The notes: generated by a model not told the origin, from the sequence alone. Shown: positions 3,627 to 44,223, counted from the first letter of the stretch. The stretch: 64,000 bases of DNA from an uncultured Methanomicrobiaceae archaeon (GCA_963826525.1 CAWGXH010000004.1:1760001-1824000); one strand, 5' to 3'. Translations and numbers: made by a program.

Positions 3627-6600
3627 TGCCGCGGAAAAATCACATACACTCGGTTCTTCTCATCGGCTCGGGGCCGATCCAGATCGGCCAGGCGGCGGAG
3701 TTCGACTTCTCCGGATCCCAGGCCTGCCGTGCTCTCCAGGAAGAGGGTGTTAAGGTCATCCTGGTTAACTCGAATCCGGCGACGATCCAGACCGATCCCG
3801 ATATGGCGGACGTCATCTACGTCGAGCCGCTCAAGGCGGAGATCATTGCTAAAATCATCAAAAAGGAGAAACCCGACGGCATCCTCTCCGGCATGGGCGG
3901 GCAGACCGGTCTGAACATGACCGCCGAGCTTGCGGAGATGGGAGCGCTTGAGGGTGTCGAGATCCTCGGTACGCCCCTCGAGGCGATCTACCGCGGCGAG
4001 GACCGCGAGCAGTTCCGCGACCTGATGAACGCTATCGGCGAGCCGATTCCAAAGAGCATGGTCCTCGAGAGCATGGACGAGATCGATACGGCTCTTGCCG
4101 AGGTCGGCCTCCCTGCCATCATCCGGCCTGCATACACCCTCGGCGGCTCCGGCGGCGGCGTTGCTCACACCGCTGAAGAGATGCGCCGGATCATCGAGCT
4201 CGGCCTTGCCCGTTCCCGTATCCACCAGGTCCTCGTGGAAGAGAGCGTCGCCGGATGGAAGGAGATCGAGTTCGAGGTGATGCGGGACTCGTCCGATACC
4301 TGCATCATCGTCTGCGGTATGGAGAACGTCGACCCGATGGGCATTCATACCGGTGAATCCGTCGTCGTGGCGCCGATCCTCACGCTCCGCGACGACGAAT
4401 ACCAGATGATGCGCAGCGCCGCAATAAAGATCATCCGCGCGCTCGACGTTCAGGGCGGATGTAATGTCCAGTTCGCCTTCCGGGACGGCGACTACCGGGT
4501 CATCGAGGTGAATCCCCGCGTCTCACGGTCATCCGCTCTCGCCTCCAAGGCGACCGGGTACCCTATCGCCCGGGTTGCGGCCAAAATAGCGATCGGCCTT
4601 CGCCTCGACGAGATAATGAACACCGTCACCGGTGCAACGCCGTCATCGTTCGAGCCTGCCATCGATTACGTCGTGGTGAAGGTGCCCCGCTGGCCGTTCG
4701 ACAAATTCAAGTCTGCCGACCGGACGCTCACCACGGCGATGAAGAGCACCGGCGAGGTGATGGCAATCGGGCGGACGCTTGAAGAGGGCTTTAAAAAGGC
4801 GCTCCGGTCGCTCGATACGGATATGAAGCGGCACACGAACCCGAGCGAGATCCGGATGATCCTCACCCGGCCGACCGACGAGCGGTTCGGCTGCCTCTTC
4901 GACGCCTTCCGGGAGGGTTTCTCGGTCGAGGAGATCGCGAGCCTTACCGCCATCACTCCCTTCTTCCTTGAGAAGATGCAGAATATCGTGACGATGGAGC
5001 AGAAGCTGCAGGCGGATTTTAAGCCCGAAGATGTCCGGAGCGCAAAGCGCTACGGGTTTACGACCGAAGAGATCGCCGAGTTCTCGGGCAGAAGCCCGGA
5101 CGAGATCGACGCGCTCGCCGGTTCGCCGACCTACAAGATGGTCGACACCTGCGCTGCGGAGTTCCCGGCGACGACCCCGTACTTCTACTCGACCTGGGAG
5201 GACGGGTGCGAGATCACGAAGAACGGGATGAAGAAGGTGCTGATCCTGGGTTCCGGCCCCATTCGGATCGGGCAGGGGATCGAGTTCGACTACTGCACCG
5301 TCCACGCCGTCATGGCGCTCCGGGAAGAGGAAGGGGTCGAGGTGCATATCGTCAACAACAACCCCGAGACGGTCTCGACCGATGCGGATACCTCCGATCG
5401 CCTCTTCTTCGAGCCGATGCAGCTTGAGGATGTGGTGAACATCCTGAAAAAGGACGATTATTACGGGGTCATGGTACAGTTCGGCGGTCAGAACTCCGTA
5501 AATCTCGCCGTACCGCTCGATGAGGCGATACGGAAACTCAATCTCCCCGTTCGGATCCTCGGAACCAGCCCCGATGCCATGGATGTCGCAGAGGACCGCG
5601 ACCGTTTCAGCCAGCTCCTGACGAAACTCGAGATCCCGAGCCCCCCGAACAGCTCCGCGTACTCCGAAGAGGAGGCACGGACGATGGCGCGAAAGATTGG
5701 CTACCCGGTCCTGGTGCGCCCGAGTTACGTCCTCGGCGGCCGGGCAATGGAACTTGTCCACGACGAGACGGAGCTTGAGAGTTACATCAAAGAGGCCGTC
5801 CGGGTGAGCAGAAAGCACCCCGTCCTGATCGACTCCTTCCTCCAGAATGCGGTGGAGATCGACGTCGACGCCGTCTGTGACGGCACCGATGTGCTCATCG
5901 GCGGTATCATGGAGCATATCGAGGAGGCGGGCGTCCACTCCGGGGACTCAGCCTGTGTTATTCCGCCGCAGTCGCTTTCTGCGTCGGTGATTCAGCAGGT
6001 GCGGGACTACACGAGGAGGCTCGCCCTCGGCCTCGGTGTCGTCGGCCTCATCAATATCCAGTATGCGGTCAAGAGCGACGTGGTGTACGTCCTCGAGGCA
6101 AATCCCCGGGCGAGCCGGACGGTCCCCTTCGTCTCCAAGGCGACCGGCATCCCGCTTGCCAAGGTGGCCGCAAAGGTCATGATAGGCAGGAAGCTCGCCG
6201 ATCTCGGCGTTACCGAGCGGGAGATCAGCCACGTGGCGGTCAAAGAGGTGCTGCTCCCGTTCAATAAGCTGCCGGGCGTCGATACGGTGCTCGGCCCCGA
6301 GATGAAGAGCACGGGCGAGGTCATGGGAATCGATTACGACTTCGGTCGGTCGTACTACAAGGCCTGCACCGCTGCCGACAACACCCTTCCGGTCAGGGGG
6401 AACGTCTTCATCTCGGTGACGGATGAGCAGAAAGAGGAGATTATGCCGATCGCACGGAAACTCGGTGAGATGGGTCTCTCCCTTTACGGCACCAGCGGAA
6501 CGGTGGAGTTCCTCGCCCAGAACGGTATCGCGGCGAATCTGGTGCGTAAAGTCCAGGAAGGTTCGCCGAACGTTATCGATATGATGCGCCACGGCGGCAT

Positions 6601-22757: not shown

Positions 22758-23444
22758 TCAGATCTCTTCCTGAATGCCCCGGATGGTCAGCCTGATGAGT
22801 CCCAGGTGTGCATCGGGCTTTGTGAAGACACAGATATAGAGGTCGCCGTACGGGGCGATGATCAGCTTGCCGTCGGGGGACTCGAGGATCATCTGGTTTA
22901 AGTTGCCCATCTCCATATCCGAGACGATCTTCACGCCGGCCCGGAGGAGATCCTCGGCTACGGCGGCAACCTGTTCGACATCGGCGTTGCCGATGGACTG
23001 GAGTGCAAATCCTTCATGAAATACCGAGACGGCGATCACGCCGGGTTGTCTCCCGATCTGTGCCAGCCTCTCCTCACTCATCGTCGATTCGCGAGCGATA
23101 GGCTCCTCCTGCTCCGGTTCCTCTTCGACTATACTGCAGCCGTTAGCCCTGCAGTACTCCCATGCTGCTTCGAGCTCGTCCGGGGTGTATGCTATCATCG
23201 TGCATTCGAGCAACGACCTGCCGTAGAGGTAGTCGAGCGCATTTTCACCGCTGATACTGTAGACCCGGTCGTCCTCCTCGAACCTCGCGGCTATGGGATT
23301 GCCTGCCTCGACGACGAGAAAGCCGCCGCCTTCCGGCCCGGTGATAGTGAGCGCGCCGGTAAACCCGGGGCTGACGCTCATGAGATTCGCAAGAGTCCCC
23401 TGCATCTTGCCGAGCATTGTCCCTTCAGGCAGCATCGGTCTCAC
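22758..23444 (-). CDS. DUF2226-like N-terminal domain fused to Roadblock/LC7 domain
   Basis: N-term MLPEG..GFTGALTI..GFLVVEAGNPIAA..GENAL; C-term PGVIAVSVFHEGF..QMILESPDGKLIIAP..AHLGLIRL. Confidence 0.75.
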   Translation of the reverse strand: MRPMLPEGTMLGKMQGTLANLMSVSPGFTGALTITGPEGGGFLVVEAGNPIAARFEEDDRVYSISGENALDYLYGRSLLECTMIAYTPDELEAAWEYCRANGCSIVEEEPEQEEPIARESTMSEERLAQIGRQPGVIAVSVFHEGFALQSIGNADVEQVAAVAEDLLRAGVKIVSDMEMGNLNQMILESPDGKLIIAPYGDLYICVFTKPDAHLGLIRLTIRGIQEEI

Positions 23445-23788
23445 AGAGCGGCAGTTATCCGGTCACGGTTCTTCTTCAGCTCGTATCTGATCCTGCCCAC
23501 GTTGACGTTTGCATTCGCGACGATGGCGATCAGTTCGTCCTCGGAGAGCGGCGAGAGGAGAATCGGGCCGTTCTCAAGCTCGACAAGCATCTGGAGCATC
23601 TCCCCCTGCCCGAGTTCCATGCTCATCGCCTCCGATGTTCCCATGCCGGTCGATGCCATCGCTCCAAGAGCTTCGATATCCACATTGCCTGCAACCACAC
23701 TTTCAATGACAAAGCCGTCCCGTCCTGCGACGACAGCGGCAGTCACTCCGTCGAGTTTTAAGAACTCTCCAAGAATCTGTTTCAGCAT
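23441..23788 (-). CDS. Roadblock/LC7 (MglB-like) protein
   Basis: DGVTAAVVAGRDGFVIES, EALGAMAS, QMLVELENG, NVGRIRYELKK. Confidence 0.92.
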   Translation of the reverse strand: MLKQILGEFLKLDGVTAAVVAGRDGFVIESVVAGNVDIEALGAMASTGMGTSEAMSMELGQGEMLQMLVELENGPILLSPLSEDELIAIVANANVNVGRIRYELKKNRDRITAAL

Positions 23789-25170
23789 CTCTTCATCCCC
23801 TCTTGTTTTGCGTTTTCTATGTCTATTCTGATGGGCATCTGTCCGATGGCGTGGGTTGCGCACGAAATGCAGGGATCATACGCACGGATCACCATCTCTA
23901 TCCGGTTTGCCGCGCTCTCGGTCAGGGCACCGTTCTGCACGACCCTGCGTGCCATATCCTCGACGCCCCTGTCCATGGCATAGTTGTTCTGGCAGGTCGC
24001 CACGATCAGGTTGCACCGTTCGATCAGTCCGTCCTCGCTCACGGAGTAGTCGTGGATCAGCGTGCCCCGCGGCGCTTCGATGATGCCGACGCCGCGCCTG
24101 TTCGCGACTCCCACCGCAGGTGTTCTGATATCCTGCCCGGTGATGTCCGTATCCGAAAGATAGGCGACTGCCTTTTCGCACGATGCGATGAACTCGATAT
24201 ACCGGGCGATGTTGTAGGCGAGGGTAGTCTGGCTGTGCGCACCGAACTTCCGGCGATATTCTGCCAGCGCTTCGTCGGCACGCTCGCTTCCCATCTCCCG
24301 AACGATGTTGAGCCGTGCCAGAGGGCCGACGCGGTAGTAGTCGCCGGATTTGAGCCGGGCGAACTTCAGGTACGACCAGGGTTCCGAGTACTCATCGATG
24401 TACGTCGCGTAGTCTTCTCCCGAGAAGGACCCGATCCGCTCTCCACCGGCTCCGAGCACCTCTGCAGTGCCGTCATACGTCGTGAACGTCCCCTTGTCGG
24501 AGAGGCCGACGAATGCCGTCTTGACGGCACCGAACGAGGGGTCGACGTCGTCGAGGAGCCCCTTTGCGATATCCCATCCCTCCTCAGCGATGGCGAGCGA
24601 CTCCTTCGCCATCGAAAGAAGGTCGCTTCGCTTGCTCTCGCTTAAGGGTGCGGACATCCCGCCCGGCAGCGCGTTCCCCGGGTGGATTGGCTTGCCGCCG
24701 ACGGCTTCCGTCAGGCGCTGCCCGAACTTCCTGACCGCGATCGCCTTCTTTGCGATCTCGGGCGACTTCTTTGCAAGCCCGATGACGTTGCGTTCCTCCG
24801 GCGGGGCCTCGTGGCCGATGAGGAAGTCGGGTGCCGCGAGCATGAAGAAGTGCAGGGCGTGTGAATGGACGAACTGCCCGACATTGAGAAGTTCGCGGAG
24901 TTTCTTGCCGGTTTCCGGGGGTTTGACGCCGAAGATCTGATCCGTCGCTTTCGCTGCGGCGAGATGGTGGGCGGAAGGGCAGATGCCGCATATCCGGGGC
25001 GTGATGCGGGGCGCCTCTTCGACGGCTGCCCCGATGAGGAACTTTTCAAAGCCCCGGAGCTCGACGACCTGGAAATGAGCGGACTCGACCTCCCCGGCGT
25101 CGTTTACGTAGATCTTGACCCCTGCATGCCCTTCGATCCTCGTGACCGGGCTGATGGTGATCTCTTTCAT
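23782..25170 (-). CDS. Group 3 [NiFe]-hydrogenase large subunit (MvhA-like)
   Basis: PVTRIEGH, RGFEKF, L1 RICGICP.AH, VGPLAR, EAPRGTLIHDY, L2 DPCISCATH plus cleavable C-terminal tail. Confidence 0.95.
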   Translation of the reverse strand: MKEITISPVTRIEGHAGVKIYVNDAGEVESAHFQVVELRGFEKFLIGAAVEEAPRITPRICGICPSAHHLAAAKATDQIFGVKPPETGKKLRELLNVGQFVHSHALHFFMLAAPDFLIGHEAPPEERNVIGLAKKSPEIAKKAIAVRKFGQRLTEAVGGKPIHPGNALPGGMSAPLSESKRSDLLSMAKESLAIAEEGWDIAKGLLDDVDPSFGAVKTAFVGLSDKGTFTTYDGTAEVLGAGGERIGSFSGEDYATYIDEYSEPWSYLKFARLKSGDYYRVGPLARLNIVREMGSERADEALAEYRRKFGAHSQTTLAYNIARYIEFIASCEKAVAYLSDTDITGQDIRTPAVGVANRRGVGIIEAPRGTLIHDYSVSEDGLIERCNLIVATCQNNYAMDRGVEDMARRVVQNGALTESAANRIEMVIRAYDPCISCATHAIGQMPIRIDIENAKQEGMKRC

Positions 25171-26084
25171 CCGCTTCTCTCCTTGATAAGGTCGCGAATC
25201 TTTGAGTTCTCTTTGTCTTCCATGATCAGGCTTCCGATGGTGAACGCATACATGGTATGGGCGACATCGTAGAGTTCTTTTTCAACCTCTTTCTGCGGTT
25301 TATCCGTCAGATCGGAGATCCGCCGCACCATCATATTGTAGATGTCGCGGCACGGTTCGCGGAGAATGTCGAGCGACGGCCCGTTGCACCCGTGGCACGG
25401 CACGTTGTTCTTCGGGCACGCCGCTCCGCATCTCCCGAAGGTCACGCTTCCGAGACAGAGGTATCCCTGGCCGAGCAGACAGTGTTCCCGGTCGGGAATT
25501 CCCTCGTACCGCCGTTTCAGCGACCAGTTCTCGACAGGCCCCATCGTCCTGTCGCACTCTGCGCAGACGGACTTCCTGGAGAGTTCGAGGGTATCACCTG
25601 CTATCAGCGCCGGAATAATCTGCTTTAAGAGTGCTTCTTTCGGCGGGCACCCGGTGATGTAGTAGTCGATCTTCGTCATATCCCCGACGGCGAACGCCCG
25701 GTACAGGAACGCAGGGACATCCTTCGGAATGGTACCGTCCGGGTGCGCCGTCTCCACGCCGCGGTAGACGTAGTCGAAGAGTTCGGCATTGCTGCTGAGC
25801 ATCGAGAGCCCCGAGACGCCGCCGTAACAGGCGCAGGTGCCGAAGGCGACGATCTTCTTTGCCCGCTTTCTGAGGAGATGTAGCCGCTCCTGATTCTCGA
25901 CGTTCCGTATTGCTCCGGTTACGAACGCGATGTCGATGCCTTCCGGGGGCTCCTTGACGTCCATGATCACCGGCGAGTAGACGATATCGGCCTTCTCGAC
26001 AAGGTCGAGGATCAGTTCGTGGAGGTCGAGCACGGCGATCGTGCACCCCGAGCACCCTGCAAGTTCTTCAATGGCTATCTTCAC
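25167..26084 (-). CDS. Group 3 [NiFe]-hydrogenase small subunit (MvhG-like)
   Basis: GCSGC, GTCACYGG, GCPP, SVCAEC, CLLGQGYLCLG, CGAACP..NVPCHGC; no Tat signal. Confidence 0.93.
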   Translation of the reverse strand: MKIAIEELAGCSGCTIAVLDLHELILDLVEKADIVYSPVIMDVKEPPEGIDIAFVTGAIRNVENQERLHLLRKRAKKIVAFGTCACYGGVSGLSMLSSNAELFDYVYRGVETAHPDGTIPKDVPAFLYRAFAVGDMTKIDYYITGCPPKEALLKQIIPALIAGDTLELSRKSVCAECDRTMGPVENWSLKRRYEGIPDREHCLLGQGYLCLGSVTFGRCGAACPKNNVPCHGCNGPSLDILREPCRDIYNMMVRRISDLTDKPQKEVEKELYDVAHTMYAFTIGSLIMEDKENSKIRDLIKERSG

Positions 26085-26093
26085 AGGGTCACC

Positions 26094-26657
26094 TCATTTC
26101 AGAACGAGCTTCTTCAAGCAGGCATTCGGCCCGGTATGGACGATCTCAAGCTTCGCACGCCGCCCCGTTATCTCTTCGATAGCGCCGACGACGTATCCGA
26201 AGAGTGTCTGGCAGAGGGGTCCCCCCTGTTCCAGGCCGTTCCGGCGAAGCGTCTGGCGAACGATGCAGTCGTGGAATACGAGGTAGATGAACGTCTCGCC
26301 GTTCTCTTCGATGATGAAACTCTCTTTATCCTCGGGTTTCCAGACCTCGAAGGTGTACTGCCCGGAGAGGAGGTCAGAGAGCTCGTGGAGCGCCCCTTCG
26401 ACGTCCTCACGCTTCTGGAAGTATTTGGCAGTTTCATGGCCGAACTTCTTTCCGGCCCGGTACGTGACCGCATTTGCCCCCCGGCCTGCGATCTCTTCGA
26501 GTGAACGGATGATGAGCCCGTTCAGTTTCATGACTCCGTGGAGCGTCTGCTCCATCTCCCTCGGTCGCGGTGTGCAGTCGAGAGGGATGTCCTCGGAGAG
26601 GTAGACGATATCGGTGTGGAAACTCTCATGGAGCTCGTCGATATAACTTGCTGTCAT
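26094..26657 (-). CDS. V4R-domain ligand-binding protein
   Basis: YRAGKKFG helix; HDCIVR..GPLCQTLFGYVVGAIEEITG..C pattern typical of V4R. Confidence 0.8.
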   Translation of the reverse strand: MTASYIDELHESFHTDIVYLSEDIPLDCTPRPREMEQTLHGVMKLNGLIIRSLEEIAGRGANAVTYRAGKKFGHETAKYFQKREDVEGALHELSDLLSGQYTFEVWKPEDKESFIIEENGETFIYLVFHDCIVRQTLRRNGLEQGGPLCQTLFGYVVGAIEEITGRRAKLEIVHTGPNACLKKLVLK

Positions 26658-26899
26658 CAGATCACCCGATTCAACATTTCACAGACCCGCATGTCGATGT
26701 AGTGCCTCCGGGCAGGATAGATCCCGCGGTGCTCCAGTGCCTGGGACGGGCAGATCTCGTGGCAGGAGAGGCAGCCCATGCAGTTATTTGGTTTGACGGG
26801 GACACTAATCCCCTCCTGGAGTTCGTAGACGTCCATGGGACAATCCTTGACACAGAGACCACACCCGAGACACGCGTCCTTATCTACACGTATATCCAT
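26657..26899 (-). CDS. 2x[4Fe-4S] ferredoxin
   Basis: CLGCGLCVKDCP and CMGCLSCHEICP. Confidence 0.93.
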   Translation of the reverse strand: MDIRVDKDACLGCGLCVKDCPMDVYELQEGISVPVKPNNCMGCLSCHEICPSQALEHRGIYPARRHYIDMRVCEMLNRVI

Positions 26900-26929
26900 C
26901 TCTTGAGCCTCTTGGTAGATTCAATCACT

Positions 26930-26960
26930 GTGATATAAAAATCCTCCGATATTTATACGT
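26930..26960 (-). promoter_or_regulatory. Putative TATA box(es) for the ferredoxin-V4R-hydrogenase operon
   Basis: Minus-strand TTTTATATC about 35 bp and GTATAAAT about 55 bp upstream of the ferredoxin ATG. Confidence 0.45.
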
Positions 26961-27142
26961 TGTGTTTTCGGTTGTTCAAGGAAAAAAGATTTCTTCCGAT
27001 AATGTCGTTTTTTAAAGTCGGATGATGGGCTACGTTCAATCGGCGGCAGTATATTGTTTTCGCCAGGCCGATTGCGAGTCTTCCGGCCGCACCCGGGAGG
27101 GGCTCATCCGCCCCTGTGCCCTTCACGAGAGAAAATGGTGGA

Positions 27143-27340
27143 TTAGTTGAGTTCTGCAACGTTTCTGGTGGCGGTCATGAGCATCTCAAGATCGTCTTCG
27201 GAGAACGACATCCTTCCCTGCAGATGATCGACCTCGTCCTGCTGCTGCCGGATACAGCGGTACATGACGTATACCATGAAGATCTGGAAGAGTACGATGG
27301 TGCTGAAGGCTACGAGCAGTATGCTCTCAACCGCCATCAT
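27143..27340 (-). CDS. Small single-TM membrane protein
   Basis: N-terminal hydrophobic helix then acidic/coiled tail; start overlaps the MinD stop. Confidence 0.7.
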   Translation of the reverse strand: MMAVESILLVAFSTIVLFQIFMVYVMYRCIRQQQDEVDHLQGRMSFSEDDLEMLMTATRNVAELN

Positions 27341-28125
27341 CTCACCCTGAAGAGTGTCCTCGCCAGCCTGTCGACGAATCCCTCCCTCACCGGGCGGTCG
27401 GGTTCGTCGTCCGTGTTCTCGATCCCTGCAATATTTGCAGAAATGCGCCGAAACGCCCGTGATGCATCGGACGAAGGGTACTTGACGACGATGGGGTGAC
27501 GGCCCGCGGATGCACGCCGGACGTTCGGGTCTTCGGGGATGATGCCGATGATCCGTACCCCGAGCAGTTTCTCCATCTGTGCACGATTGAACTCATCGTT
27601 GGTCGTGGTGACGCGATTGAGTATCGCCCCTTCCACATGGCCGCCGACGGTCTCGGTCAGTATCTTGGTCTTCAGCGCGTCGACGATGGAGGAGATCTCC
27701 GGATTGACCACGAGAATCACCCCGTCGGCAACGGTCAGCGGAATGATGCCGTCTCTGCTGATTCCTGCCGGAGCATCGATGAGCATCACATCGAAGTCGC
27801 CGATGAGCTCACTCATGACGTCGCGGAGGCGATCCGGATTGGAGTTCTGGAACCCCTGGAGCGAGAGACCGCTTGGAACGACCTTCACCCCGAGCGGGCC
27901 GTCGTAGATAGCGTCCCGGACGGATGCCTTTCCCCCGAGCACTTCGTGGAGGGTTACCGGGAGATTTTCAAGTCCCAGGATGAGTCCGAGATTTGCCATC
28001 CCGACATCAGCATCCAGAATGCAGGTCTTCTTGCCGTACTTCGCAAGCATCGGGCCGAGGTTTGCCGTAACGGTCGTCTTTCCCGTACCGCCCTTACCGG
28101 ATGCAATTGTATATACATATACCAT
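27337..28125 (-). CDS. minD: MinD/ParA-family ATPase (archaeal MinD)
   Basis: SGKGGTGKTT, DADVGMANL, IDAPAG, ILNRV, IPEDPNV; C-terminal amphipathic GFVDRLARTLF. Confidence 0.93.
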   Translation of the reverse strand: MVYVYTIASGKGGTGKTTVTANLGPMLAKYGKKTCILDADVGMANLGLILGLENLPVTLHEVLGGKASVRDAIYDGPLGVKVVPSGLSLQGFQNSNPDRLRDVMSELIGDFDVMLIDAPAGISRDGIIPLTVADGVILVVNPEISSIVDALKTKILTETVGGHVEGAILNRVTTTNDEFNRAQMEKLLGVRIIGIIPEDPNVRRASAGRHPIVVKYPSSDASRAFRRISANIAGIENTDDEPDRPVREGFVDRLARTLFRVR

Positions 28126-28157
28126 GGTCGCTCATTCCCCGTTTCTTCTCGGGTAGG

Positions 28158-28740
28158 TCATACCCATCTCCGGAGGGCTTCTCCGACGTCACTTTCAAGC
28201 ACTGGCAGAGCATCGGGAGAGGACCTGCCGTACCGGACGGGCGATACCGATCACCGTTTCTCCCCTGTGGGAAACGCCGATAAGCCTGACATCTTCACCC
28301 GCCGGTCTCTCTCCCTGCTGGTAGAGGTAACTGAACTCTGCCGCCTCTTTTTGCGGGTCGGATCGCGTCGATCCGATGACAAGACCGTCCGCGGTAGCAA
28401 GCGTAAAGGACGTCAGGCTGTACTTCTCTGCGATAGCGGCGAGATGCTCCTGCAGGCTCTCCGCAGCAGTCAGGTCGATATCGGTTCTTACGCTACTCTC
28501 CGGCTCTTCCTCTGCCGGAACCCCTCTGTTCTGCACGGACAGCCGCTCCGGACGCAAGTTCGCGAATCCGGTCCCTACGGTGACCTTTCTGTGGAGGTCC
28601 ACGATCGTAGAGAGGTTCCTGTGAAGATCTACAATGAAGTAGAGGCATCCTGCGCAGGCTATCACCAGGATCACCGTGGTGATTGCGATAAAGGTCATCA
28701 GGAATGTTGTGTATCCCGTTGGATCCATAAATGGCGTCAA
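28158..28740 (-). CDS. Membrane-anchored protein with Roadblock-like C-terminal domain (probable frameshift near 28225)
   Basis: N-terminal TM; LAAIAEKYSLTSFTLATADGLVIGST resembles a Roadblock start; alternative frame ends ..LESDVGEALRRWV* at 28158. Confidence 0.6.
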
Positions 28741-28746
28741 CTCCTT

Positions 28747-29386
28747 CTATGCGTCACCATCCTGAATGAGATGCTCGAGGTTAATTCTCCGGAGCATATC
28801 CTTGCAGCTGACCCTGAACGTACTGTTGAGTTTATCAAGATCCATCTCTTCGATCGTCTGCACGATCGAATTGAGGTCTTCCTGGTGTCCGTCGGCAGGA
28901 GGAGCCCCTGTTCGATCGCCCGTCACCCGACTCGGCCGAACCTGCGGCACTGCTGCCACAGGTCCGGTAATGTTCGGTGGTGCGGGCGGTTTTGCCCCCT
29001 GCCCCGGTATCCGGGAACTCGCTGGTCTCTGGGTCCCGCTCCGGGCCAACGACGCTTTCCCTGGAGCACCTGCCTTTGGCGGTTCGGTGCTGCAGGAGCG
29101 GTTGAACTCCCGTGCGAGATTGATCTGTTCTGGGGTGAGATGGTTCAGCTCTGCCGCTGCCTCGCGCTCTTCGTCTTCCCGCAAACCGTCCAACGCATGC
29201 ATTCCCTTCTTCGCACCGCACTCGGCAAGCAGCACCTGCCCCCTATCGAATACTAATATGGCGCTTTCCTTCCCGAGTGCGATTGTAACAATATCCGGTG
29301 AACTGCGTACTCCCAAGCTCGTCCTTCAGTGAACGAAGGGTGACCGATCTATAAAGGCGGTGAAACATTCCACGCGGCAGCTGCAT
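28747..29386 (-). CDS. DUF2226-like protein with Pro-rich linker (frameshift near 29285)
   Basis: Upstream frame MQLPRG..DELGSTQFTGYC joins TIALGKESAILVFDRGQVLLA..GMHAL..QINLAREFN; AT-rich TATA-like stretch at about 29408-29430. Confidence 0.7.
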
Positions 29387-29525
29387 ACGACCACTTCACG
29401 CCACTGATATTTAATATATGCTATATTTATTTGTTTTCTGCCGATACTATCGGGTGTGGGGAATCGTTGCTCCATTCCCCGAGGGTACCCCTCTCTTTTC
29501 GGGTAACGGTTCTCCGAAAATGATT

Positions 29526-29990
29526 TTACTCCGCCATCTCCCGAAGAACGAACGCATACGCGGTCTTTACGCCGTCTTCAACGGCTGGATCGATTGCCGG
29601 TGAATAGTGGTCTACGCTGCCGACCTCTATGCCGATGGTTACTATCTTTGTAGCAAGACCGAGTTCACGTGCAACGGTGACGGCCTCACCGACACCGAGA
29701 TCATGGAGGACGATTGATCCGTGACGCACCGGGGGCGGCTCCCGAAAGATATGCACTTCTCCGATGCGCTCTCCAATCCCGACCATAGCGTCAACGATCA
29801 CGATCTTTTCATAGCCTTCCATGAGGGGGATCAGGCCGAGCCCGCCGGCTCCACCGTCAACTGCATCTATCCCGGGATTCAGCTCCAGGAGGAGGTGCAG
29901 CACCGCAATTCCTGCCCCGTCATTTCCCATGAGCGGGTTTCCGCATGCAATTACTCGTCTCCGGGTGTGTGTCACGCTCTTCCTCACCAC
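29526..29990 (-). CDS. Hydrogenase maturation protease
   Basis: ACGNPLMGNDGAG, VDGG, IVDA, LHDLG. Confidence 0.92.
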   Translation of the reverse strand: MVRKSVTHTRRRVIACGNPLMGNDGAGIAVLHLLLELNPGIDAVDGGAGGLGLIPLMEGYEKIVIVDAMVGIGERIGEVHIFREPPPVRHGSIVLHDLGVGEAVTVARELGLATKIVTIGIEVGSVDHYSPAIDPAVEDGVKTAYAFVLREMAE

Positions 29991-44138: not shown

Positions 44139-44223
44139 CGCCGGGAGGGAGATTTGAACTCCCGAGGCGCAAAGCACCAGCGGCTTTCAAGGCCGCCGCC
44201 TTTCCGGACTAGACTATCCCGGC
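44139..44223 (-). tRNA. tRNA-Ser (anticodon TGA)
   Basis: GCCGGGA acceptor stem, GCGGC-CTTGAAA-GCCGC anticodon arm, long variable arm, GGGAG-TTCAAAT-CTCCC T-arm; CCA not encoded directly after the discriminator. Confidence 0.95.

Follow-up and report, generated by a model that had tools for sequence, protein, structure and literature searches.

A four-gene [NiFe]-hydrogenase cassette of an uncultured Methanomicrobiaceae archaeon, composed of a ferredoxin, a V4R protein, an MvhG-like small subunit and an MvhA-like large subunit, was found joined to a switch module whose Roadblock, DUF2226-like and MinD genes are, in relatives, part of a Tad/Epd-like type IV pilus locus. The switch module has six members: one Roadblock protein, one fusion of a DUF2226/PATAN-like domain to Roadblock, another DUF2226/PATAN-like protein, a Roadblock-like protein with a membrane anchor, a MinD ATPase and a small membrane protein. 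The recognition of the Roadblock/DUF2226-like/MinD genes as a type IV pilus module is new here, and the best reading of the whole, which is put forward tentatively, is that the cassette provides the H2/redox input to a pilus-control switch.

Layout of the locus

The stretch of DNA analyzed (the window; 64,000 nucleotides, C4:1760001-1824000) carries 11 ORFs at 22758-29990, all on the minus strand and in one orientation. An earlier note, made from the sequence, had described 11 such genes, and every one of them was found where that note had placed it. The features are listed from the highest coordinate downwards:

29526..29990, minus strand: g01, [NiFe]-hydrogenase maturation endopeptidase (Pfam HycI 1.7e-15; TIGR00072 2.6e-26)
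28747..29385, minus strand: g02, DUF2226/PATAN-like protein, interrupted (N-terminal domain homologous to that of g11; 28747-29316 as annotated)
28195..28740, minus strand: g03, membrane-anchored Roadblock-like protein (alignment; Atlas structure of an orthologue)
27337..28125, minus strand: g04, archaeal MinD-type ATPase (TIGR01969 2.5e-97)
27143..27340, minus strand: g05, hydrophobic protein of 65 aa (ORF; 4-nt overlap with the MinD stop)
26900..27142, minus strand: intergenic T-run and candidate A/T-rich TATA-like boxes some 40-55 nt ahead of the ferredoxin start (by eye)
26657..26899, minus strand: g06, 2x[4Fe-4S] ferredoxin (Fer4_7 3.1e-13)
26094..26657, minus strand: g07, predicted V4R-fold protein with invariant Cys/His positions (Foldseek; source names)
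25167..26084, minus strand: g08, MvhG-type hydrogenase small subunit (PDB 5odc_E 3.2e-71)
23782..25170, minus strand: g09, MvhA-like [NiFe] large subunit (PDB 7t2r_D 4.6e-121; Ni-binding CxxC motifs)
23441..23788, minus strand: g10, Roadblock/LC7 protein of 115 aa (Robl_LC7 9.5e-16; ORF as called 23441-23863)
22758..23444, minus strand: g11, DUF2226/PATAN-like N-terminal domain fused to a Roadblock domain (C-terminal Roadblock 1.7e-8)

According to the ORF coordinates, the ferredoxin and V4R genes share 1 nt, the V4R and small-subunit genes are separated by 9 nt, the small- and large-subunit genes overlap by 4 nt, the large-subunit gene overlaps the Roadblock gene, and the latter overlaps g11 by 4 nt; this confirmed that the ORFs of the last block overlap or lie within 10 bp, as had been claimed. 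The true start of g10 is most likely the ATG at 23788, judging from its orthologues, which align from residue 25-26 of the called ORF. The g02 gene has its true start at the ATG at 29385 and is broken in this assembly by one extra base near 29286 (an apparent +1 frameshift). From an extra base near 28222 onwards, the C-terminus of g03 is unlike that of its orthologues.

Conservation and nesting around the type IV pilus locus

The conservation of this neighbourhood was far above chance expectation. In a survey of 54 Methanomicrobiales loci, 32 of them with long flanks, the large subunit was followed by the Roadblock gene and then by g11 in 49/49 testable loci, and the ferredoxin, V4R and small-subunit genes preceded the large subunit in 46/46. 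MinD was located inside the flanks of 29 of the 32 long-flank loci and was missing from those of L037, L039 and L045. The link between cassette and module was kept in three different gene orders within Methanomicrobiales. The earlier note had proposed a hydrogenase embedded in a V4R/Roadblock/DUF2226-like/MinD module and had named a gene-neighbourhood survey as its check, and the proposal was borne out in these loci and in three further lineages described below. Since kin are not independent, these counts make the events look more numerous than they were.

In four hydrogenase-free genomes of the lineage f5 (4 were inspected of the 17 having a g11 match), the Roadblock gene and g11 were found immediately upstream of PilB-TadB-TadC, and the g02-g03-MinD genes were divergent. 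Cassette and module were placed between the prepilin peptidase and PilB in 11 of the 32 long-flank loci, and in most non-Methanoculleus relatives the hydrogenase is situated within the pilus locus. The pilus genes of the window genome (a PilB-type ATPase, two T2SSF platform genes and a prepilin peptidase) are located at C4:1228163-1236345, about 550 kb away, and no PilB, T2SSF or prepilin peptidase gene stands beside the module there. The f5 and pilus-embedded loci agree with the archaeal T4P loci of Makarova et al. (2016), whose main text names MinD-family ATPases (FleN/MinD, arCOG00589) as the most frequent regulators in archaeal pilus loci and describes Roadblock proteins (arCOG02603) as "often encoded in a variety of T4P loci." As the switch genes belong to the pilus locus of relatives, the pilus is the probable output of what had been called a "polarity or positioning switch." The pilus connection of the Roadblock/DUF2226-like/MinD genes had previously been missed.

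The occurrence of these genes was nested, with the hydrogenase cassette inside the range of the Roadblock pair and the latter inside that of the pilus ATPase. The hydrogenase was detected in 66 of 121 Methanomicrobiales genomes and a g11 match in 64 of these 66, both exceptions being fragmented assemblies. The Roadblock pair without hydrogenase was found in the 17 f5 genomes and in G089 and G099, and PilB with neither of them in 5/5 genomes tested. The enzyme was lost repeatedly inside hydrogenotrophic genera. In one genome a 99-aa remnant of the large subunit lies ahead of Roadblock-g11-PilB, which indicates loss of the cassette while the switch stays.

The same module was also found, with differing gene orders, in three further family-level lineages (f14, f15, and f8). 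Hydrogenase and switch genes thus share an operon in several archaeal orders. The association was seen in 3/3 f14 loci examined. In f15 the cassette is joined directly to PilB-TadBC, and a small GTPase lies between two Roadblock genes. Cassette and Roadblock gene occurred together in 3/3 f8 loci examined, two of them with MinD as well; in L100, the one f8 locus submitted to Pfam, a true DUF2226 domain (3.7e-16) follows the Roadblock gene, in the operon position of g11. No pilus genes adjoin the module in f14, f8, and Methanoculleus. Both f14 and f8 possess the V4R-linked enzyme alongside a canonical mvh(D)GA locus, so that the former is a separate paralogue there, and the earlier view that this is not an ordinary Mvh held wherever it was testable. 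In the tree, the V4R-linked enzyme of f14 clustered with that of Methanomicrobiales (93/98), apart from the canonical f14 pair, and the f15 and f8 enzymes were placed on separate long branches.

The enzyme and the proteins encoded with it

Judged by its sequence, the enzyme of the window is MvhAG-like. The top PDB match of the large subunit g09 was 7t2r_D (4.6e-121), followed by 5odc_F (5.7e-117) and 9sw2_F (8.1e-114); in its translation the N- and C-terminal Ni-binding CxxC motifs are both intact, and the protein runs past the last motif His, a C-terminal tail thus being present. The small subunit g08 aligned with MvhG 5odc_E (3.2e-71) over residues 2-285 of 305. The NCBIfam scores were below the cut-offs, at 390.9 bits against 800 for g09 with VhuA and 232.6 bits (5.3e-69) against 450 for g08 with VhuG. 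The full-length subunits, both Ni motifs, the tail and the protease gene are shared with MvhAGD/VhuAGD (group 3c). By contrast, mvhD, mvhB, and a polyferredoxin are absent from the window operon, where a small ferredoxin and the V4R gene, strictly co-conserved, take their place, and the enzyme is translationally coupled to the Roadblock gene.

The only FlpD/MvhD gene of this genome was found at C4:195017-195385, far from the window, and g09 is its sole MvhA-like enzyme, which leaves room for a role as the Hdr-linked hydrogenase. Published genome papers annotate this enzyme as Mvh. Every Methanoculleus-type locus carries the maturation protease gene upstream, and no pilus-embedded locus does.

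The earlier domain assignments were largely right, except that the V4R, DUF2226, and g03 Roadblock labels were not returned for the window proteins by Pfam or profile comparison. On g07 the Pfam V4R model (PF02830) was silent, and only ATC_hydrolase was returned, at 1e-4, below the cut-off; the label is favored by the source name of the family, "contains V4R domain," and by the fold model. Among PDB structures, Foldseek matched this model (mean pLDDT 66) best to the sensor domains of MopR/PoxR/DmpR, to TRAPPC3/Bet3 and to H-NOX, with E about 2e-5 for MopR, PoxR, DmpR, and TRAPPC3, and the predicted structure thus points to a sensor fold. Positions C149, H174, and C180 show no variation, and C131 is kept in 7 of 8 rows; the remaining row is masked. 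The V4R protein is more conserved than the hydrogenase itself and is absent from the f5 loci. The same set of folds (Bet3/V4R, longin/Roadblock, small NTPase) occurs in TRAPP/Ragulator, g07 resembling TRAPPC3/Bet3 and g11 resembling LAMTOR. In the present system, however, the V4R gene goes with the hydrogenase cassette rather than with the Roadblock module.

The mean column identity of g10 was 84% (13 orthologues, hydrogenase-free lineages included), and between lineages with and without the hydrogenase the Roadblock protein was 77% identical and showed no visible adaptation. Robl_LC7 was recognized in 14/14 g11 orthologues, and the C-terminal domain of the g11 AF2 model (pLDDT 85.6) resembled an Asgard Roadblock, LAMTOR, and MglB. 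The DUF2226-like label fared less well on the window proteins: Pfam DUF2226 (PF09987) gave no match on g02 or g11 at E up to 10, g02 as annotated (28747-29316) had no Pfam match, and DUF4388 (PATAN, PF14332) reached 0.051, on g11 only. The label is favored by the homology of the N-terminal domains of g02 and g11 (hhalign 91.8%, E 7e-7), by the f8 counterpart, and by sub-threshold matches in orthologues, to DUF4388 in 3/14 for g02 (best 7.7e-4) and 2/14 for g11 and to DUF2226 in 2/14; the Atlas likenesses to PATAN and DUF2226 (0.79-0.82) are leads only. Similarly, g03, which has an N-terminal hydrophobic stretch, gave no Pfam match, and its description as a TM-Roadblock-like protein failed in profile comparison (hhalign 2.6%) and was favored by the Atlas structure of an orthologue (TM 0.76 to a Robl_LC7 cluster). 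Genes resembling g05 come after MinD in the own-genome paralogue, in 2 of 4 f5 loci and in f14. Additionally, a g11 paralogue was preceded by a HAMP protein in 3/3 genomes; with this type of neighbour, g11 is of a kind found behind signal-input proteins.

The module resembles the MglA/MglB switch and the PATAN pilus regulators in having Roadblock beside a P-loop NTPase, PATAN-like domains and, in relatives, pilus ATPase genes, along with the structural match of g11 to MglB. PATAN domains are reported to bind PilB and PilC in Synechocystis, PATAN genes have MglB genes nearby, and a 2026 preprint describes ParA in the place of MglA beside MglB. The system of the window differs in being archaeal, in the replacement of MglA by a MinD-type ATPase, with no GTPase among the 11 genes and a small GTPase only in the f15 locus, in the fusion of the PATAN-like domain to Roadblock and in the presence of a hydrogenase in the operon. 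The word "hydrogenase" is absent from the main text of Makarova et al. (2016), whose supplementary tables may list these loci, and from a 2026 census. The literature search yielded no description of a hydrogenase combined with V4R, Roadblock, DUF2226-like, and MinD genes or of its pilus link, in agreement with the earlier statement that no described system of this composition was known.

Possible roles of the cassette

The results given above concern the genes present, the structure of the operon, its conservation and nested occurrence, and protein folds; the physical contacts in the following scheme, its direction of signalling and its output are all inferred. The [NiFe] site would oxidise H2, the electrons would pass through the three clusters of the small subunit to the ferredoxin, and the V4R protein would read the redox state, directly or as a relay. 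The Roadblock/PATAN-like proteins would act on the ATPase cycle of MinD and on the PilB/TadBC pilus machine, changing how active the latter is or where it is placed, and pilus-mediated attachment of the cells may thus be steered by the H2 supply. A more definite version, in which some methanogens and related archaea have a dedicated V4R-linked group 3 [NiFe]-hydrogenase as a cytoplasmic H2 sensor that acts, without a kinase, through Roadblock/PATAN-like adaptors on a MinD ATPase and on the motor of the type IV pilus, is possible and somewhat doubtful.

The H2-sensing regulatory hydrogenases (group 2b), HoxBC-HoxJ-HoxA and HupUV-HupT-HupR, work with a kinase. The logic proposed here is the same, a [NiFe]-hydrogenase accompanied by signal-transduction proteins and not by an energy-conserving partner, and in f8 the large subunit stops at the final Ni-ligand motif in 3/3 cases, with no tail, as in the known H2 sensors. 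The window enzyme, however, has a tail and a protease, its best matches belong to group 3 and not to group 2, and no histidine kinase or response regulator domains were detected among the 11 genes with Pfam and NCBIfam. In favor of the switch-input reading are the constant company of the Roadblock pair, ferredoxin and V4R, the pilus locus of relatives, the nested occurrence, the large-subunit remnant, the recurrence in f14, f15, and f8, the second, canonical Mvh of f14 and f8, the sensor fold of V4R, the HAMP neighbour of the g11 paralogue, the tail-less f8 enzyme and the reported binding of PATAN domains to PilB and PilC. Counting against it are the unadapted Roadblock protein (77%), the likeness of the window enzyme to a catalytic Mvh in its tail, dedicated protease and full-length MvhG alignment, the distance of the pilus genes in this genome and the sub-threshold PATAN/DUF2226 assignment of the window proteins.

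Some of these features also suit an ordinary catalytic Mvh that feeds MvhD/HdrABC and only shares a promoter with pilus regulators for co-expression, e.g., at low H2, with neither a physical nor a signalling link between them, a reading that we consider unlikely. It would account for the full-length matches to MvhA/MvhG structures, the intact Ni motifs, the tail and the neighbouring protease, the status of g09 as sole MvhA-like gene with MvhD encoded elsewhere, the published annotation, and the unchanged Roadblock protein of hydrogenase-free lineages. It does not explain why ferredoxin and V4R are co-conserved in all 46 loci, with V4R outdoing the enzyme in conservation, in an operon devoid of MvhD, nor why canonical Mvh is also present in f14 and f8. 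Moreover, no genome with a contiguous locus had the cassette without the Roadblock pair, the link persists in lineages with very different gene orders, and the enzyme was repeatedly lost in hydrogenotrophic genera.

Quite unlikely is that the hydrogenase is cargo, which MinD, the Roadblock/DUF2226-like adaptors and the membrane-anchored Roadblock-like protein would place or partition, likely at the membrane or pilus base, the same module placing the pilus machine elsewhere. ParA/MinD ATPases are encoded beside the cargo that they position, as a review describes and as is otherwise established; MinD lies in the flanks of most loci, nested occurrence suits a cargo dependent on its positioning module, and, with no pilus genes by the module in f14, f8, and Methanoculleus, the hydrogenase is the only candidate cargo there. 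Yet L037, L039, and L045 lack MinD despite their long flanks, the cassette proteins have no membrane anchor or known adaptor motif, and the literature search turned up no precedent for a soluble hydrogenase that is positioned. A single historical insertion of the cassette upstream of a pilus-regulator operon, kept by inertia, is highly improbable: the V4R-linked enzymes of Methanomicrobiales and f14 form one clade, so that much of the conservation, counted among kin, could stem from one event, but the link outlasts at least three rearrangements within Methanomicrobiales and a 550 kb translocation, other gene orders accompany the long-branched enzymes of f15 and f8, and the start and stop codons of the large-subunit and Roadblock genes overlap both here and in f14.

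If the hydrogenase is indeed a cytoplasmic H2 sensor of this kind, the H2 supply would decide whether cells attach to H2-producing partners or release them. The pathway would then be the first for H2 sensing to be described in archaea, and it would couple a redox enzyme to an NTPase switch in a new way.

The operon and its hydrogenase

Eleven open reading frames, all on the minus strand, are present at 22758-29990, as the earlier note had described. Those with a family call are listed here.

Genes of the operon at 22758-29990 with Pfam/NCBIfam family calls
minus strand, HycI-type maturation protease (g01)
minus strand, archaeal MinD (g04)
minus strand, 2x[4Fe-4S] ferredoxin (g06)
minus strand, Oxidored_q6 small subunit (g08)
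minus strand, NiFeSe_Hases large subunit (g09)
minus strand, single Roadblock protein (g10)
minus strand, 228-aa protein with a Roadblock domain at its C-terminus (g11)

The others are a DUF2226/PATAN-like protein (g02), a membrane-anchored Roadblock-like protein (g03), a 65-aa hydrophobic protein (g05) and a protein with a putative V4R fold (g07). The ferredoxin, V4R, small and large subunit genes are called here the cassette, g10 and g11 the Roadblock pair, and the Roadblock, PATAN-like and MinD genes the switch module.

Both Ni-binding CxxC motifs are present in the translated large subunit, which extends beyond the last His as a tail. Its closest solved relative was its counterpart in an electron-bifurcating NiFe hydrogenase (7t2r_D, 4.6e-121), the match to MvhA (5odc_F) reached 5.7e-117, and the small subunit aligned with MvhG over residues 2-285 (3.2e-71). 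Neither subunit reached the curated NCBIfam cut-offs of VhuA and VhuG. No second MvhA-like gene was found in the source genome, G000 (3.06 Mb, 16 contigs, 87.6% complete), and its sole MvhD gene sits 1.59 Mb from the hydrogenase. TATA-like boxes and T-runs were identified by eye. The single tRNA of the window, tRNA-Ser (anticodon TGA), lies on the minus strand at 44139-44223.

The window was compared with a genome of the same genus (G110, 88.8% nucleotide identity) and with contigs of relatives, and uncompensated single extra bases were found near 29286, 28222 and 23808. The first splits g02, which truly begins at the ATG at 29385; the second changes the end of g03 and the third the tail of the large subunit. 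Elsewhere in G000, a TadC gene (G000:C4:1235310-1236345) and a g11 paralogue (G000:C5:305234-305987) also lie in two frames; errors of assembly or genuine lesions and pseudogenes may account for all of these. Just ahead of the g11 paralogue, 3/3 genomes examined encode a small HAMP-domain membrane protein (loci L080, G000:C5:300000-311000, at 5220-6468; L087, 5083-6338; L088, 5728-6987).

The share of sampled words was at most 0.09 in every sequencing run, and therefore none of the runs comes from this organism. Contigs of relatives (85-95% likeness) in the metatranscriptome X4 span the junctions of small with large subunit, V4R with small subunit and Roadblock with g11, a weak hint that relatives express the operon genes. 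X4 was used only in this way because contigs cannot demonstrate a transcript and such libraries may contain DNA; the parts left uncovered are uninformative.

Among the proteins lacking a family call, g07 (187 aa) gave one Pfam match, below cut-off, and the V4R-family sequence profile had no match below E 0.2 among PDB sequences. The family is labeled in the source records as "hydrocarbon binding protein (contains V4R domain)", and the model of g07 (pLDDT 66) resembles the sensor domains of MopR, PoxR and DmpR, as well as TRAPPC3/Bet3 and H-NOX, so that the V4R protein of the cassette is predicted to have a sensor fold. Mean column identity across nine orthologues was 86%; C149, H174 and C180 are invariant even in relatives at 31-35% identity, and C131 is kept in 7/8 rows, the eighth being masked; the protein thus has a conserved Cys3His site. 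Alignment-based complex prediction of V4R with the small subunit, Roadblock and g11 gave 0.00 in both runs, with the controls left unfolded, and is uninformative in either direction.

At their N-termini, g11 and g02 carry homologous domains (hhalign 91.8%, E 7e-7), which have sub-threshold matches to DUF4388/PATAN and DUF2226; the C-terminal domain in the g11 model (pLDDT 85.6) resembles Asgard Roadblock, LAMTOR subunits and MglB. The Roadblock likeness previously seen in g03 was supported by a structure match of its soluble part in the Atlas, the sole source of this putative assignment, but not by profile comparison (hhalign 2.6%); Pfam placed Robl_LC7 in 1/8 members of the g03 family, at 0.14. 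In one genus, the g11-type protein is enlarged to 628-724 aa by a long insert separating two conserved ends (loci L047, 10533-12707, and L054, 10770-12656).

Conservation in and beyond the Methanomicrobiales

Scanning of species-representative genomes gave 69 loci, and in 54 of them the large subunit was at least 60% identical. The gene arrangement described earlier was confirmed and extended: the Roadblock gene and g11 follow the large subunit in 49/49 loci where 1.2 kb or more of downstream sequence is available, and the small subunit, V4R and ferredoxin precede it in 46/46 loci where the upstream sequence reaches 2.4 kb or more. Where 5.5 kb was available on each side (32 loci), MinD was present in 29, upstream together with the protease in 21 (the Methanoculleus type) and downstream in 8, and 11 had PilB downstream and prepilin peptidase upstream. 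The other 15 loci, from bacteria and one Methanocaldococcaceae MAG (30-43% identity), contained no V4R, Roadblock or MinD.

A second MinD, 66% identical to that of the window, was found in G000 (L079, G000:C4:901000-913000, at 5610-6589); a separate small membrane protein of g05 type comes after it, and no Roadblock or pilus genes adjoin. Orthology of the two MinD copies was not settled by the tree, in which the G000 paralogue, the clade of the Methanoculleus-type loci and that of the pilus-embedded loci are not resolved from one another. A pilus-embedded locus (L045, 5210-6468) has an extra divergent pair of a Roadblock and a DUF2226-like/Roadblock protein (26-35% identity) and lacks MinD.

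V4R relatives were detected in 35 of the 201 genomes sampled from the phylum, with matches outside the Methanomicrobiales in the families f14 (13/15 genomes), f8 (4/27), f15 (1/23) and f20 (1/2); the f20 match is weak and its locus contains nothing related. The three f14 loci share the order ferredoxin, V4R, small subunit, large subunit (54% identity), Roadblock, g11, g02-like, a 237-aa protein, MinD and g05-like, the Roadblock start overlapping the stop of the large subunit, and no pilus genes were found within 10 kb. The single f15 locus has ferredoxin, V4R, small and large subunit (42% identity), immediately followed by PilB, a fused TadBC and a KaiC-like gene, with MinD divergent; a DUF2226 protein with a Roadblock and a separate Roadblock-small GTPase-Roadblock trio lie in the vicinity.

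All three f8 loci (L100, L101 and L102) have V4R, small subunit, ferredoxin and large subunit, V4R being in tandem in at least two. Their large subunits (390-405 aa; L100, 7606-8793) stop at the last Ni-ligand motif and are tailless. In L100, five small genes, including a membrane-anchored Roadblock-like protein as judged from the translation, follow the large subunit and precede MinD, Roadblock and a true DUF2226 (3.7e-16). MinD and Roadblock also lie downstream in L101, and L102 has Roadblock alone of the switch genes, in divergent orientation. Proteins of 218-258 aa that occur with the cassette in f15 (L099, 10484-11260) and f8 (L100, 6948-7604) have C-terminal stretches that look alike by eye; no Pfam family was found for them.

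Additionally, f8 carries an mvhD-G-A operon, and f14 a second G-A pair next to a polyferredoxin. A tree built from 20 large subunits grouped the V4R-linked enzymes of the Methanomicrobiales with those of f14 (93/98); the canonical pair of f14 (100/100) lies outside this group. Monophyly of all V4R-linked enzymes was unsupported and is not claimed, because the backbone of this tree is unresolved.

Association with pilus loci

In loci outside Methanoculleus, among them those of Methanofollis and Methanolinea, one strand carries PIN-ATPase, hisI and prepilin peptidase genes. The opposite strand of these loci reads ferredoxin, V4R, small subunit, large subunit, Roadblock, g11, g02-like, MinD, the gene of a 209-aa protein, a PilB-like ATPase (T2SSE, PilB3_C) and a pair of T2SSF genes. 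In G000, these pilus genes adjoin one another at C4:1228163-1236345, without the switch module. A Cys-rich or Fe-S N-terminal domain of PilB was considered as a target of the ferredoxin and ruled out; PilB begins with a low-complexity stretch rich in Pro and Glu, in which no motif of this kind occurs.

Where the cassette is absent, the Roadblock/PATAN-like/MinD module is part of the pilus locus. No hydrogenase orthologue was found in the 22 genomes of the family f5, and 17 of these have g11. In all four of the g11-positive genomes examined, TadC, TadB, PilB, g11 and Roadblock lie on one strand and g02-g03-MinD is divergent, with a g05-like gene after it in two. The cassette has also been lost in families that otherwise carry the hydrogenase, in G099 (carriers in its genus: G045 and G094) and in G089 (carriers: G015 and G021). 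The genome G099 has the peptidase, a 99-aa large-subunit remnant and then Roadblock, g11, the 209-aa gene and PilB. This 99-aa frame (L085, 8766-9065) corresponds to a C-terminal portion of the large subunit (4.5e-21) and stands directly before Roadblock in a genome otherwise without hydrogenase; it was therefore taken as a deletion scar. Another genome, G089, has g02-g03-Roadblock-g11 and no hydrogenase.

In five genomes with neither hydrogenase nor g11, a PilB orthologue persists (67-73% identity); a Roadblock match was obtained in just one of the five, at 25% identity. The hydrogenase is present in 66/121 Methanomicrobiales genomes and g11 was matched in 64 of those 66, the two exceptions being fragmented assemblies, with the match at a contig end or the genome 56% complete. 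Occurrence is therefore nested, the cassette within the range of the Roadblock pair and the pair within that of PilB.

Possible role of the hydrogenase

The sensing or positioning role first suggested for this enzyme was supported in part, by the conserved operon with the switch module. Our tentative preference is for the cassette as an H2/redox input to a Roadblock/PATAN-like/MinD pilus switch. Oxidation of H2 would set the redox state of the ferredoxin/V4R pair, this state would be relayed to the Roadblock/PATAN-like proteins, and these would tune MinD and the pilus motor. According to published work, small NTPases are under the control of Roadblock proteins (MglB acts as the GAP of MglA), ParA can stand in for MglA beside MglB, PATAN domains bind PilB and PilC, and archaeal pilus loci frequently carry MinD-family ATPases and Roadblock genes. 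The switch is similar to the MglAB/PATAN control of bacterial pili, but MinD replaces MglA, and the pilus locus is of the same kind as archaeal two-platform-gene pili. The enzyme does not belong to the group 2b H2 sensors.

Several points count against a sensor. Roadblock is 77% identical between lineages with and without the cassette, the pilus genes are distant in G000, the window enzyme appears to be a working catalytic Mvh and the only one in that genome, and genome papers annotate the Methanoculleus-type enzyme as Mvh. An ordinary Mvh sharing just a promoter with the switch genes is less likely; the enzyme is MvhAG-like, but its operon differs from that of Mvh and its scores lie below the curated cut-offs of that family, and the V4R-linked enzyme has its own subunit set with ferredoxin and V4R. 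That the hydrogenase is cargo of the MinD module is unlikely. The four-gene cassette always travels with the Roadblock pair in contiguous loci, and a historical accident of adjacency is very improbable. The rest of the probability goes to roles that we have not thought of.

In the literature searched, no description was found of a hydrogenase tied to V4R, Roadblock, MinD or pili in archaea, nor of one in an archaeal pilus locus, although the supplements of two pilus censuses lay outside the search and may list such loci. What is new here is the hydrogenase as a candidate sensor, of predicted function, in a putative sensor-to-pilus-switch system.

To our knowledge, how H2-consuming methanogens find and hold H2-producing partners is an open question, and we know of no archaeal H2 sensor. 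The locus provides a concrete, testable candidate for one: a hydrogenase paralogue tied to a Roadblock/PATAN-like pair that is itself tied to a pilus machine. It also corrects routine annotation, in that the "Mvh" of Methanoculleus and relatives has ferredoxin and V4R as its subunit set. Given this set and the coexistence with canonical Mvh in two lineages, models of MvhAGD-Hdr electron flow in the Methanomicrobiales rest on assumption. Moreover, the locus would be an example from the archaea of MinD acting together with Roadblock proteins, which bears on ParA/MinD regulation in organisms without MinE.
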